Of a DNA stretch of 50,818 bases, positions 47,539 through 50,818 are shown piece after piece. Numbering within the stretch: position 1 is the stretch's first letter; the number at the start of each line of letters is the position of its first letter. The DNA is from Candidatus Omnitrophota bacterium (lineage in GTDB: Bacteria; Omnitrophota; Gorgyraeia; Gorgyraeales; Gorgyraeaceae). Location: assembly GCA_043821705.1 (NCBI GenBank), contig JBDRCN010000031.1, forward strand, positions 1-50,818, read 5' to 3'. Made by a program: the position numbers and the translations under genes. The notes below the pieces were generated by a model. It did no database searches, was not told the DNA's origin, and saw only the letters and a program-made list of their open reading frames with translations.

Positions 47539-48051
47539 ATGCAAGCAGGTGACATATTCTTATTCAGAGCTGAAAAAGCCTTTTTTTCCAAGGTAATTGC
47601 TTGGGGCACTAACAGTAAGTATTCTCATGTAGCTATCTGTATATCCCCTGAGATGAATCTAGCTATAGAAGCCATGACAAAGGGTGGGGTAAGGGCAAGA
47701 GACATCAGATCTATCACTGAAGCCTACGATATATATAGAATAAAAGACAAATCTTTACTATATCTTAATAAAACAGCCTCATTCCTAGTAAGTAAGCTTA
47801 ATAGTAACTATGATTACTTCGGAGTAGTCTTTCTAGGTACATTAAAGCTCCTCAGTAAGATATTAGGCAAAACCCTTAAGAATATAGCTAATAAATGGCA
47901 GAAGGATAGAGATTATTTCTGCAGTGAGCTTTGCTGTGAAGCTTTTTACAATGGAAGCCATATTGATATTGTGCCTCATATAGAGGAATGGGATATTGCT
48001 TCTCCTGGGGATATAGCTAAGAGTAGCGTGGTGGAGATGGTTGTAGCGTAA
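47539..48051 (+). CDS. Permuted papain-like (YiiX/YebB, NlpC/P60 C92) enzyme
   Basis: GDIFLFR, YSHVAI (His), YDY, YFCSEL (Cys), SPGDI. Confidence 0.88.
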   Translation: MQAGDIFLFRAEKAFFSKVIAWGTNSKYSHVAICISPEMNLAIEAMTKGGVRARDIRSITEAYDIYRIKDKSLLYLNKTASFLVSKLNSNYDYFGVVFLGTLKLLSKILGKTLKNIANKWQKDRDYFCSELCCEAFYNGSHIDIVPHIEEWDIASPGDIAKSSVVEMVVA

Positions 48052-48096
48052 TTTATTGTTGAAGTTATCTGTTCAGGGGTTTATTATAGGTTTGGG

Positions 48097-48220
48097 GCCG
48101 TATCAGAGATACGGCGGTTAAAAGATTTCAAGTCCTTGGCAAAGTAATGGATTTGTTAGGTGGAGAGTGGTAGAGTAGAGAGAGGTTGTTAAAAGCGTGG
48201 TTTGGAGATCTTTGGCAAAG
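48097..48220. repeat. Dispersed intergenic repeat, copy 4
   Basis: GCCGTATC-AGA-GATACGGC GGTTAAAAGATTT...CCTTGGCAAAG...GATTTGTTAGGTGGAGAG...GGTTGTTAAAAGCGTGGTTTGGAGATCTTTGGCAAAG. Confidence 0.8.
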
Positions 48221-48268
48221 ATAAAATCTTTTGGTGTATCGCAAATTTAAATAATCCTTAAATAACCA

Positions 48269-48314
48269 TTGACATAGGAAAAATATTGTGTTATTATTTT
48301 TACAAAAGTAACAC
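48269..48314 (+). promoter_or_regulatory. Sigma70 promoter overlapped by a NikR-type operator
   Basis: TTGACA(48269)-17 bp-TATTAT(48292); GTGTTAT-N13-GTAACAC at 48288-48314. Confidence 0.75.
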
Positions 48315-48329
48315 AATGAAAGGGTTTTT

Positions 48330-48440
48330 ATGTCAGAATTAGTCAGATTTGGTGTGTCTTTAGAAAAAGATCTTTTAAGAAATTTCGACAAGCACATCAA
48401 AGATAAAAAATATCAAAACCGCTCTGAGGCCAGGGGATAA
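48330..48440 (+). pseudogene. nikR: Truncated nikR (ribbon-helix-helix part only)
   Basis: MSELVRFGVSLEKDLLRNFDKHIKDKKYQNRSEARG*; breaks off within the NRSEAIRD motif. Confidence 0.85.
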
Positions 48441-48570
48441 AAGATAAAAGGGGACGTGCGAAAAAGGGACACTTTGGTAGGGGAGGGGTAAACCGGTACA
48501 AGAAAGACCTATGGAAAAAGGGTTATTGCCTAAAAAGGATGCCCTGGTAGGGTAGGGGAGAGGAAGAAAA

Positions 48571-48617
48571 GTTGCAAGCCACAAGACACAAGTCACATGT
48601 CATGTTGCAGGTCGCAT
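48571..48617 (+). repeat. Degenerate heptamer array (consensus about GTCRCAA)
   Basis: gttgcaa gccacaa gacacaa gtcacat gtcat gttgcag gtcgcat. Confidence 0.6.
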
Positions 48618-48706
48618 GGCATACACCACAAAATCAAAAAAATCCAAAATAATTTGAAAGAAAATGACCCCCTCCTGTGTCTTATATGGTAGAGGGGAGG
48701 TGTATT

Positions 48707-49225
48707 ATGCCAAAACAGATAGTAGAATCAGAATTTATTGATAATAAGATATTCTTCATAAGGGGGCAAAAGGTGATGCTGGATAGGGATCTGGCAATGC
48801 TTTATAGGGTAGAGACAAAAGTGTTGATCCAAGCAGTAAAGCGCAACATTGAACGCTTTCCAGAAGACTTTATGTTTCAGTTAACCTGGGAGGAGGTTAA
48901 TTCTTCAAGGTCACAAATTGTGACCTTGAAACATGGTCACAATATCAAATATTTACCTTATGCTTTTACTGAACAAGGTGTAGCTATGCTTTCAGGAGTT
49001 CTGCATAGTAAACGTGCCATTGAGGTAAATATTGCTATTATGCGGGCATTTGTAAGGATAAAGCAGGTCCTTTCTACACATAAAGAGCTTGCTGAAAAAC
49101 TAAGGGAATTAGAAAAAGAAGTCGGAAGAAATAGCAAGCTTATTATAGAAATATTTGAGATAATTAAGAAGCTTACACAGTCGCCTATGCCACCACCAAA
49201 GCGTCAGATAGGATTTCATAGTTAA
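48707..49225 (+). CDS. ORF6N domain DNA-binding protein, copy 1
   Basis: IRGQKVMLDRDLA.LY.VET, VKRN.ERFPEDFMFQLT, PYAFTEQGVAMLS, A.EVNIAIMRAFV, KRQIGF; RBS before ATG 48707. Confidence 0.92.
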   Translation: MPKQIVESEFIDNKIFFIRGQKVMLDRDLAMLYRVETKVLIQAVKRNIERFPEDFMFQLTWEEVNSSRSQIVTLKHGHNIKYLPYAFTEQGVAMLSGVLHSKRAIEVNIAIMRAFVRIKQVLSTHKELAEKLRELEKEVGRNSKLIIEIFEIIKKLTQSPMPPPKRQIGFHS

Positions 49226-49234
49226 TATAGGGTT

Positions 49235-49416
49235 TTTTGTTTTGTTGCCCTATCAGAGATAGGGCGGTTAAAAGATTTAAGGATTCGATGGAGCCGAGGC
49301 TTTAAGATCCCGGATCTTGCCGGAATATACTAGCATGTTTGAGATCCGGGATCTGGGTTGGTGAAGAGTTATAGCGCAGCATTCGCTATAAAAAGCGTAG
49401 TTTGGTGGTCTTTGGC
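49235..49416. repeat. Dispersed intergenic repeat, copy 5, containing an extra inverted repeat (49305-49354)
   Basis: TTTGTTGCCCTATC-AGA-GATAGGGC GGTTAAAAGATTT...GTTGGTGAAGAG...AAAAGCGTAGTTTGGTGGTCTTTGGC. Confidence 0.75.
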
Positions 49417-49521
49417 TTAGTTAATCTTATCGGTATCACAATCTCAAAGTAAAAAAATATAAAATAATTTGAAAGAAAATAGCCCCCTCCTGTGTCATAT
49501 ATAGTAGAAGGGGGGTGGATT

Positions 49522-50040
49522 ATGGCTAAAAAAGGTCTGATTCCATCAGAAACTATCGAGAATAGGATATTTTTGATAAGAGGTCAAAAGGTCATGCTAG
49601 ATAGGGATCTGGCAGAATTGTATGAAGTGTCTACAAAGCGTTTAAATGAGCAAGTCAGAAGAAACATCGATAGGTTTCCGGGCGACTTCATGTTTAGACT
49701 GACAAAGGCAGAAAAAGATGAGGTGGTCGCAATTTGCGACCACCTAAAGCCCCTTAAATTCTCACCACAATTACCTTATGCATTTACAGAGCATGGTATT
49801 TTAATGCTTTCATCAGTATTAAATAGTGACCGTGCTGTTCAGGTAAATATATTTATTATGAGGATTTTTGTTAAGATAAGGCATGTTCTGGCTAACAATA
49901 AGCAATTAGCCGATAAATTAAAAGAGCTTGAAATAAGACTTGATAAACATGACGAAGAGATAACAGTTATTCTTGATGCAATCAACAAGCTCATGAGAAA
50001 GCCAGAAAAACTTAAACGCCAGATAGGTTTTCATAATTAA
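49522..50040 (+). CDS. ORF6N domain DNA-binding protein, copy 2
   Basis: IRGQKVMLDRDLAELYEV, VRRN.DRFP.DFMF.LT, PYAFTEHG..MLSSVL, KRQIGF; start at ATG 49522. Confidence 0.92.
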   Translation: MAKKGLIPSETIENRIFLIRGQKVMLDRDLAELYEVSTKRLNEQVRRNIDRFPGDFMFRLTKAEKDEVVAICDHLKPLKFSPQLPYAFTEHGILMLSSVLNSDRAVQVNIFIMRIFVKIRHVLANNKQLADKLKELEIRLDKHDEEITVILDAINKLMRKPEKLKRQIGFHN

Positions 50041-50065
50041 ATAAAAATCTTAGTTTAGAAACTTA

Positions 50066-50084
50066 AGGTTCCAATTTGGAACCT
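50066..50084. repeat. Orphan palindrome of the ORF6N-internal type
   Basis: AGGTTCCAA-T-TTGGAACCT. Confidence 0.8.
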
Positions 50085-50089
50085 GCAGC

Positions 50090-50118
50090 TTGACAAACCA
50101 GCCTCCATAGTCTATAAT
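50090..50118 (+). promoter_or_regulatory. Consensus sigma70 promoter
   Basis: TTGACA-17 bp-TATAAT. Confidence 0.85.
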
Positions 50119-50180
50119 AGTTTTATAACCGAATATCAGTCCCGAGTTAAGAAGGGGTAAATCCCGGACTTAAATAAAGT

Positions 50181-50222
50181 AAAACCTTCACGAGTGTAAT
50201 CTTGTGAGGGTTTTTTGTTTTT
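50181..50222 (+). terminator. Leader terminator downstream of the 50090 promoter
   Basis: AAAACCTTCACGAG-TGTAAT-CTTGTGAGGGTTTT followed by TTGTTTTT. Confidence 0.8.
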
Positions 50223-50328
50223 AAGGGGCTCTCAAGTCGTACGTTTGGAAGGGGTCACTGCGACTATAAACAATTAAAACCTTCTTTTGTTAAACCAGCC
50301 TTGCCAAAGGCTAACAAAAGGGGGTAGT

Positions 50329-50818
50329 ATGGTGGTAATCAAGTTGATCAAAGTATTAGTTATAATTTCAATATTCCTTGCTGCATTTTTCCCGATTTAT
50401 ATTAATGTGTCTGTGTTTGCTCTAGAGCAAGTAGGTTTTCAGAAAACATCAGATAATACTTTCTTAAATTTTGAAGAAGTTATTTCAGAATATTCTGAAC
50501 GTAGAGAGATCTTTGAGATGATAGAAGACGGCGAGAAGCAGCTAGAACTTCACCCCTCTAGGACCTATCTATACGAAGGCCTTGCGCTATTATACGACAG
50601 AGTAGAAATGTACGACAATGTCTTGAGATGACATTAAATCAGCTTGAATGCTCCCAGGACAGTAGCCCTGTAAATCTCGGTATCATATATGCCAATATCG
50701 CCAGATGCTATCTCAGTCTAAATAAGCTTGATGAAGCTAAGACCGCGATCGATAGATCCTTGGAATATTCCCCTGAAAACCCCATAAACAGGACTCACCT
50801 GGTTGACTACTATATCCG
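50329..50818 (+). pseudogene. Exported TPR protein with a frameshift near 50620 (runs off the window)
   Basis: Signal/TM, then LYEGLALLYDRVEMYDN; the other frame continues LEMTLNQLEC...IIYANIARCYLSLNKLDEAKTAIDRSLEYSPENP with no stop to the window end. Confidence 0.7.

Follow-up and report, generated by a model that had tools for sequence, protein, structure and literature searches.

A free-standing copy of the ORF6N palindrome at the edge of a tandem ORF6N gene pair in a Candidatus Omnitrophota bacterium

The stretch of DNA analyzed here (the window, 50,818 nucleotides) is the whole of contig C31 of a Candidatus Omnitrophota genome (G000; 1.41 Mb, 38% GC, 59 contigs, 91% complete). Two ORF6N genes stand in tandem at the end of this contig, and the second of them is followed by a small palindrome, at positions 50066-50084, that we call the orphan. 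Comparison with ORF6N loci in other genomes gives good support to the conclusion that the orphan is a free-standing copy of a palindrome that ORF6N genes carry within their coding sequence, that it is of the "after stop codon" class, and that it marks the right edge of the two-gene block. The orphan is a member of this palindrome family and of this position class, and it is not linked to the promoter that lies immediately downstream. Its role is a matter of more tentative interpretation, and the possibility that we prefer is a satellite site of the ORF6N system, that is, a structured site read by the ORF6N protein. The orphan is a modest feature when taken alone, and its use is that such a copy, being outside any coding sequence, reveals the letters that are retained for the sake of the element itself.

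The sequence of the orphan is AGGTTCCAA-T-TTGGAACCT, 19 bases with perfect 9-base arms about a central T at 50075 and the core GGTTCCAA-T-TTGGAACC; like the other palindromes and the block described below, it is assigned to no strand. It is separated by 25 bases from the upstream stop codon of gene 2 (TAA, 50038-50040), which places its centre at about +35 from the stop, and by 5 bases from the downstream TTGACA that starts at 50090, and the frame of gene 1 read through this stretch gives a stop followed by FRNLRFQFGTCS. The form, both gaps and the frame reading had been described in a first-pass annotation of these letters and are confirmed, as is its view that the orphan is the same type of element as two palindromes within the genes. 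A longer, partly decayed palindrome surrounds the orphan at 50059..50091, in which 13 of 16 pairs between the arms (50059-50074 and 50076-50091) are complementary and the right outer arm overlaps bases 1-2 of the -35 box. The left arm agrees with the consensus of 38 free-standing family copies out to -13, and three of the seven outer positions in the right arm depart from it. Folded as single-stranded DNA, the orphan reaches -7.3 kcal/mol (z -3.3), and the two intragenic copies fold more strongly (-11.9 and -13.5 kcal/mol).

The window has three matches to the pattern GGTNNCAAWTTGNNACC and 100 shuffles of it have none, and the same three are the only ones in the whole 1,409,165-base genome, all inside 1.2 kb, the pattern written backwards having none; the motif is thus not at background frequency. 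A genome script found 63 perfect odd palindromes with arms of at least 8 bases, and only one other, at C39:31779 within the promoter region of an unrelated divergent locus, has a palindromic T..CAAWTTG..A core. Further genomic matches of the CCAAATTGGAA type were rejected as family members because they are part of an unrelated repeat of ~130 bases that resembles a miniature inverted-repeat transposable element. This repeat, centred on CCAATACCAAATTGGAAATT, is present in at least 8 copies on C1, C2, C16, C35, C39 and C51. We define the family as odd palindromes with the centre C-A-A-W-T-T-G (or CA-NNN-TG) and a T/A pair at positions ±6. The orphan has the centre CCAA-T-TTGG, with T at -6 and A at +6, it has complementary arms of at least 9 bases, the sequence of which is free to vary in the family, and it lies within the distance of about 130 bases from an ORF6N gene at which members outside such genes are found.

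The two ORF6N genes are on the forward strand and each encodes 172 amino acids (gene 1, 48707..49225; gene 2, 49522..50040, with the orphan in its 3' flank). Both match the Pfam family PF10543 over the complete model (1-86 of 86), with 120.6 and 106.9 bits relative to a cut-off of 27.8 (E 3.5e-35 and 6.5e-31), and no other PF10543 match is present in the genome. Their closest relatives with named records are mostly from Candidatus Omnitrophota. The palindrome of gene 1 (48904..48930) has 13-base arms around a centre at 48917 and encodes SSRSQIVTLK, and that of gene 2 (49721..49745) has 12-base arms around a centre at 49733 and encodes VVAICDH, in a frame that is offset by one base relative to gene 1, so that the central base is codon position 1 in gene 1 (RSQIVT) and position 2 in gene 2.

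This intragenic palindrome is a hallmark of the ORF6N family. We compared 40 related genomes with G000 (41 in all, kin not being independent), of which 21, G000 included, have ORF6N genes, and nearly every ORF6N gene in these relatives has a long palindrome at the position matching residues 64-76 of gene 1. In a second, unbiased set, for which one species genome was taken per match, 88 gene segments from 80 loci represent Omnitrophota, Planctomycetota, Verrucomicrobiota, Chloroflexota, Acidobacteriota, Nitrospirota, Bacteroidota, several Proteobacteria, Patescibacteria and others, and 81 of the segments reach a hairpin score of at least 9 at the fixed place, with a GC content of the loci from 0.29 to 0.75. 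Pooling both sets gives a palindrome in 101 of 110 near-full-length ORF6N genes, and this master copy sits about 210 bases into the coding region. An ungapped alignment of 150 distinct units has pairing of the arms in 91.6% of cells versus 70.5% in shuffles, and while this percentage is partly built in because the units were chosen as hairpins, the number of pair types is not. Double-sided changes are seen in 414 cells versus 121 in shuffles and at 11 of the 13 pairs, and these covariation values are reached by none of 500 shuffles and approached in no slid register. The centre of the alignment is conserved, with C15 and A16 invariant and T12, A17, T20, G21 and A24 present in at least 90% of units.

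The peptide encoded by the palindrome is, by contrast with these conserved letters, the most variable part of a protein alignment that is otherwise 65% identical, and it forms the least confident loop of the AlphaFold model (residues 71-80, predicted local distance difference test score 59 versus 85-91 around it). Readings in alternate frames recur elsewhere (LVTICDH in locus L051, LVTNWHRF in L036 and L048). Since the palindrome is kept in other frames and encodes a variable, low-confidence loop, the constraint is placed on the nucleic acid and not on the peptide. Units are also repeated in frame, about 14 codons apart, in L062, L064, L065 (three times), L100, L105, L118, L119, L030 and L037. 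The flavour of the orphan itself is found in coding copies: the first-pass annotation had suggested looking for ORF6N alleles that encode LRFQFGT, and these exist in three of the 88 genes, which carry the exact 19-mer (L072, Verrucomicrobiota; L086, a proteobacterium; L089, Nitrospinota), and the form with W = A is present in relative G033 (L049), where it encodes LRFQIGT. Mismatches in imperfect intragenic copies (A.C 12, C.A 6, G.T 7, T.G 5) and in imperfect free-standing copies (A.C 7, C.A 2, G.T 4, T.G 3) are mainly transitions, without strand bias or enrichment of G-U on the sense strand. Selection for an RNA hairpin of the sense strand would favor G-U pairs, and such a hairpin was rejected. 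The A+T-rich centre and the often perfect arms fit pairing at the level of DNA, as a cruciform or a single-stranded DNA hairpin.

Palindromes of the family also recur outside the coding sequence, next to a minority of the genes. Among 156 distinct family units, 118 are inside an ORF6N gene, 25 are on the 5' side of the nearest such gene, 11 are on its 3' side, and two are in loci without an ORF6N gene. Expressed per gene, a copy is present within 130 bases upstream in 13 of 106 cases and within 110 bases downstream in 9 of 104, gene 2 of the window being included in the latter. The 3' copies sit at +3 to +99 from the stop codon, and no T run follows those that were inspected. In the Omnitrophota relatives, the 5' copies are preceded by a conserved upstream motif and followed by the ribosome-binding site (L030, L035, L041, L045, L048), and in one case three different 5' copies stand in tandem. 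The 38 free-standing copies have T at -6 in 37 cases and A at +6 in 36, at positions that were outside the selection criteria, and positions ±4, 5, 7, 8 and 10 covary. Free-standing copies, which are free of coding constraint, have this pattern of a conserved apex on a variable stem. They recur in independent phyla, are often perfect, and have arms of up to 17 bases.

These copies also bear on the first-pass annotation's proposal that the orphan is a silent donor cassette or the scar of a third ORF6N gene deleted at the palindrome. The flavours of free-standing and intragenic copies within one locus mostly differ, which speaks against a donor cassette and equally against a reading in which each protein would recognise a flavour of its own, and there is no switch of identity at the palindrome between genes 1 and 2. 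In a search for a mosaic break at this place none was found, the most alike parts of the two genes being the upstream region and the first 90 bases. A scar is disfavored because there is no ORF6N similarity on either side of the orphan and because free-standing copies recur beside intact genes. A tblastn search of 50041-50818 gives no ORF6N match, PF10543 matches in the genome are confined to genes 1 and 2, and the flanks of the orphan are homologous to other elements. The idea of an ORF6N pseudogene fragment was likewise rejected, as no protein similarity extends beyond the palindrome itself. The donor-cassette reading, like the four alternatives weighed below, is less likely than a satellite site.

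The case for a satellite site rests on the combination of a conserved apex with a covarying stem, on the linkage to one gene family, and on the positions at the start, middle and end of the gene. In this proposal, the palindrome would act as a stem-loop or cruciform-forming site, in which the apex C-AAWTT-G and the T/A pair at ±6 would be read by a protein, most likely ORF6N itself, and the covarying arms would need only to pair. ORF6N is predicted to combine a nucleic-acid-binding domain of the KilA-N/APSES-like type with a long helix behind it, through which two copies probably pair, and it probably binds the orphan. When bound at the sites of its own gene, ORF6N would set its own expression. 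A protein on the orphan, which is centred about 50 bases before the transcription start, would touch the -35 box of the promoter at 50090, and the orphan could in this way couple this promoter to ORF6N in G000 alone, as a positional side effect. The AlphaFold model of ORF6N has an alpha/beta N-domain and a helix at 102-157. Matches of the N-domain obtained with VIA-align are all below the caution level of 8 for this tool, the first being the N-domain of baculovirus Orf22 (4ye7_B, Z 6.6, root-mean-square deviation 3.5, 93 residues aligned), followed by Dachshund (1l8r_B, Z 6.0), Ski (Z 5.5) and Mbp1 (1bm8_A, Z 4.8). The best Foldseek match to the model has E 0.23, and a sequence search of solved structures with ORF6N gave no relative, only coiled-coil noise with a best E of 0.13. 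The modeled resemblance to Bro-N-like, Dachshund and Mbp1 DNA-binding domains is weak but in the direction expected.

Several observations weigh against a satellite site. Covariation at positions that a protein need not touch favors pairing within a strand over a double-stranded operator, and it could also arise from functionless correction of one arm by the other. Because free-standing and intragenic flavours mostly differ, there is no sign of own-site specificity. Compared with other members of its family the orphan is weak, having 9-base arms, a decayed right outer arm and a fold of only -7.3 kcal/mol, and its remnant in the sister species, which is described below and has lost the core, may mean that selection on it is slight. 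Two relatives that are 81% and 83% complete (G007 and G014) have family palindromes and no ORF6N match. Moreover, a scan for the common flavour AAGGTCACAAWTTGTGACCTT gave at least 97 occurrences in at least 96 loci (16 viral, at least 80 metagenomic), and among the matches listed 62 are inside the ORF6N match (mostly at query residues 68-80), seven are on its 5' side, two are on its 3' side, and one is in a gap of the match, but 25, of which 14 are viral, are in fetched loci without an ORF6N match. The exact 19-mer of the orphan occurs in six viral loci, none of which has an ORF6N match and four of which are terminator-like. Many of the viral AAGGTCACAAWTTGTGACCTT copies without ORF6N are also followed by T runs and are terminator-like. 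The matches on phage contigs look like independent terminator hairpins, are not counted as members of the family, and mean that the bare sequence is not diagnostic. In favor of a satellite site, family palindromes across the 41 genomes are mostly found in those that bear ORF6N: the restricted pattern RTYRCAAWTTGYRAY is present in 20 of them versus 2 for the control, and perfectly symmetric sites of the C flavour are present in 13 of the 21 with ORF6N versus 2 of the 20 without, a comparison in which kin are again not independent.

The main rival explanation, which we regard as somewhat unlikely, is that the orphan is a recombination or rearrangement joint. Hairpin hot spots, either similar to repetitive extragenic palindromic (REP) elements or used by an unknown recombinase, would serve to join, lose or move small cassettes of accessory genes such as ORF6N and toxin-antitoxin pairs, and the orphan would mark the joint between the ORF6N block and the locus downstream, which consists of a promoter and a conserved leader RNA. 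One line of evidence is the synteny break at the orphan. Homology with the same-genus genome G001, a sister species, begins at 50076, the base after the orphan centre, with 90% identity, and the block 48431..50075 has no counterpart at either of the flanking loci in G001. The left edge of this block cuts a nikR-like ribbon-helix-helix gene (48330-48440 in the window) at 48430, after about 34 codons; the copy in G001 is whole, with 137 codons, and is on another contig, and the remainder of the locus is absent from the G000 assembly. The pair of ORF6N genes that G001 itself has is 17 kb away on the contig of the promoter-leader locus. As a separate observation, the truncated nikR-like gene retains an 11/12 promoter (48269-48297) and an inverted repeat (48285-48317).

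The neighbors of stand-alone copies, drawn from 139 scanned open reading frames around metagenomic and genomic copies, are also in keeping with a joint. They include the toxin-antitoxin genes BrnT (L016, L232), a CopG antitoxin (L020), ParE with a helix-turn-helix gene (L191) and PIN (L199), and the mobile elements IS30-like transposase (L212) and TnpW (L229). In two proteobacterial genomes, a BrnA-antitoxin-like gene precedes ORF6N (L111 151-257, L125 166-188), and one to three family palindromes are upstream of the promoter-like site of this gene. The contig G014:C183 has a cassette array in the order gene, two palindromes, gene, palindrome, toxin/antitoxin, palindrome. In two free-standing copies (L033:1998, L035:1429) the arms differ from each other in flavour, the in-frame duplications of units affect several genes, and many ORF6N fragments of relatives terminate near the palindrome. 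Against a joint, there is no palindrome at the left edge of the block (48430/48431) or between genes 1 and 2, and no switch of paralogue identity at the palindrome. The genome has three copies, none of which is near any of four Y1-transposase matches, and it is another palindrome family that accompanies such a match at C51:50340. A joint also leaves unexplained why the master copy has a fixed codon position across phyla.

Distinctly unlikely, in our estimation, is the proposal that the orphan is a decaying by-product without function, produced either as a copy of the intragenic palindrome by slippage or template switching or as the last scrap of a lost ORF6N gene. The orphan does have the shortest arms of the three copies (9 versus 12 and 13), three mismatches on the right outer side and the weakest fold, and its counterpart in G001 is decayed, with the core gone. 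In addition, the frame reading FRNLRFQFGTCS equals the peptide FENLRFQFGTSS encoded in L122 at 10 of 12 residues, which fits descent from a coding copy. On the other hand, the flanks have no similarity to ORF6N coding sequence, copies are enriched in the flanks of intact genes, and the recurrence of often perfect copies in independent phyla, with arms of up to 17 bases, is unexpected of neutral scraps.

The first-pass annotation had also proposed that the orphan is an operator through which ORF6N proteins control the downstream promoter. That promoter is of the sigma-70 type (TTGACA-17-TATAAT, 50090..50118, forward strand), matches the consensus at 12 of 12 positions, and is the start of a promoter-leader element that exists in multiple copies, being followed on the same strand by a conserved leader RNA of ~95 bases (50119..50225) that has a hairpin at its 5' end and an intrinsic terminator (50181-50214 and a T run). 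Given that the orphan is 5 bases from the -35 box and its extended arm covers the first two bases (TT) of TTGACA, it overlaps the region contacted by RNA polymerase, and an effect on the promoter is therefore sterically possible. Further, strong promoter-like sites start 8-45 bases outward of the orphan, of a copy in L065 and of two copies in L111, which makes four of 38 free-standing copies versus 7 of 692 control positions. A dedicated operator that places the downstream transcript under ORF6N control is nonetheless very unlikely, because the palindrome is not conserved with the promoter in other copies or orthologues: it is absent before the -35 box in all 16 other loci with an alignable promoter part, and in G001 there is only a remnant at the same distance from TTGACA (AAGGTT-AG-AACCTT), which is short, lacks the CAAWTTG core and has no ORF6N gene upstream. 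These 16 loci and the remnant show that the orphan travels with the ORF6N block and not with the promoter, and that it has decayed where ORF6N is gone. In L065, the same layout of palindrome and promoter precedes an unrelated thioredoxin-like gene, as short spacers alone would give. A genome-wide regulon was rejected, since the genome has no additional site and the loose pattern TNNCAAWTTGNNA is too unspecific.

The least probable of these alternatives is a hairpin formed by the gene-2 message at its 3' end, serving as a stabilizer or a weak terminator; the segment 50041-50094 does fold as RNA at -11.6 kcal/mol (z -2.1) and copies of the same sequence on phage contigs are followed by T runs, but the orphan itself lacks the T run that would follow the G+C-rich hairpin of an intrinsic terminator (GCAGCTTGAC follows its stem) and has no entry in the terminator scan, and G-U mismatches are not in excess over A.C and C.A together (12 versus 18 in intragenic copies, 7 versus 9 in free-standing ones).

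Comparison with known systems reveals partial likenesses. REP elements and the genes of their Y1/HUH transposases (REP-associated tyrosine transposases, RAYT) form units called REPtrons. In common with these, the ORF6N palindromes are hairpins that may be extragenic, sometimes in tandem, clustered at one small gene, at rearrangement joints and between accessory genes. They differ in that the partner gene holds the master copy within its coding sequence, with a constant codon position, and in that the partner is KilA-N/APSES-like, with no HUH or Y1 motif found using Pfam. Nor are there many dispersed copies, the three in G000 being in one 1.2-kb stretch, and no Y1 gene flanks them, as the four Y1_Tnp matches are on C7, C16, C46 and C51, with none on C31. 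A RAYT link was rejected because Y1_Tnp is present in 36 of the 41 genomes regardless of palindromes. A separate palindrome family, CCGCAGACCC-N-GGGTCTGCGG, flanks the Y1 match at C51:50340-50648 (palindromes within C51:50047-50881) in a classical REP/RAYT layout, and occurs further at C21:24118, C39:950 and C51:68975.

Small regulators of phages and mobile elements often have autoregulatory palindromic operators, such as the C-boxes of restriction-modification controller proteins. Dyad symmetry, a site beside or inside the own gene, sometimes in tandem, and a small predicted DNA-binding protein with a probable pairing helix are shared with the ORF6N system, but the arms of its palindromes covary freely about a conserved centre, the reverse of the usual operator pattern, and the main copy is ~210 bases within the coding region. 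The palindromic elements of Rickettsia, reportedly described by Ogata and colleagues in 2000 as inserted in frame into genes, resemble the ORF6N palindrome in being within an open reading frame, translated as a tolerated surface segment and duplicated in frame; they are scattered through many genes of one genus, whereas the ORF6N unit is shorter (25-35 bases) and is found in nearly all members of one gene family across phyla. Finally, the attC sites of integrons are imperfect palindromes between small cassettes rich in toxin-antitoxin genes, with structure conserved over sequence. ORF6N palindromes likewise lie near toxin-antitoxin cassettes and keep structure over sequence, but their conserved letters are central, not outer, and their main copy is intragenic. 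The outer core motifs R' and R'' of attC were not seen in the ORF6N palindromes by eye, no integrase search having been made.

The interest of the element extends beyond this locus because ORF6N genes are very widespread, often in multiple copies, and listed as candidate anti-phage genes. Genes 1 and 2 each have a match to PDC-S05, a candidate defence family in PADLOC (E 8.1e-63 and 7.3e-64). A representative of PDC-S05 that has a RhuM domain, and is thus not of the ORF6N type, is reported to protect E. coli B from T7, T5 and T4 (bioRxiv 10.1101/2024.09.26.614923). Partial ORF6N matches are also present in five unannotated phage records. A fixed codon position across 29-75% GC, in varied frames, together with copies at gene edges and beside toxin-antitoxin cassettes, strongly hints that the system depends centrally on a structured site in DNA or RNA. 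A bolder idea, which we consider unlikely at present, is that ORF6N genes and their palindromes are a self-contained hairpin-recognition system of a new type. In it, the protein would read a stem-loop or cruciform that has its master copy within the protein's own gene, and satellite copies such as the orphan, at the edges of genes and of toxin-antitoxin or other accessory cassettes, would be sites for regulation or recombination or, in view of the PDC-S05 candidacy, structure-forming sensors of phage interference with the processing of DNA or hairpins. We found no paper that describes the ORF6N palindrome, supplements not being covered by the search. New here are the class of 3'-flank copies, the frequencies of 5' and 3' copies per gene, the conservation of the apex where there is no coding constraint, the link to toxin-antitoxin neighbors, and the result that the orphan does not belong to the promoter alongside it.

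Other features of the window were noted during this analysis. The regions 48631-48796 and 49446-49614, which comprise the upstream sequence and initial 90 bases of gene 1 and gene 2, are 84-85% identical, as compared with ~50-70% for the remainder of the genes, and this pattern suggests gene conversion or shared 5' control. In the 5' untranslated region of the ORF6N genes, a CCCCCTCC tract can pair with the ribosome-binding site. A repeated intergenic module, consisting of a hairpin followed by GGTTAAAAGATTT and then a GTTGTTAAAAGCGTGGTTTGGAG-like box, is present at 48084-48128 and 49234-49278, and also near 48186, 49385 and 42100; it follows several small genes, and in G001 and other relatives it is upstream of promoter-leader copies.

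The promoter-leader element is itself a candidate attenuator or small RNA, and the leader RNA is not part of the palindrome system. The region 50041-50330, which comprises the promoter, the leader and a conserved element extending to ~50300, has matches in 23 of the 41 genomes, often in several copies and without ORF6N nearby. In an alignment of 13 leader copies (L007-L025), a GTCC...GGAC hairpin around GAAGGGG is conserved, an A-rich tract is present, and the stem of the terminator covaries. An Rfam scan of 47900-50818 gave no family, L10_leader being below threshold with E 0.75. Further downstream, the gene starting at 50329 has its ribosome-binding site AAAGGGGG paired to a tract upstream in a predicted hairpin at 50279-50325 (-22.8 kcal/mol, z -3.2), and this fold may gate translation of the gene. 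The frame from 50329 stops at 50631 and a frame encoding tetratricopeptide repeats begins at 50628 (50329-50816 in the window overall), where G001 has a single open frame of at least 297 codons, and the split may reflect a frameshift or a sequencing error.

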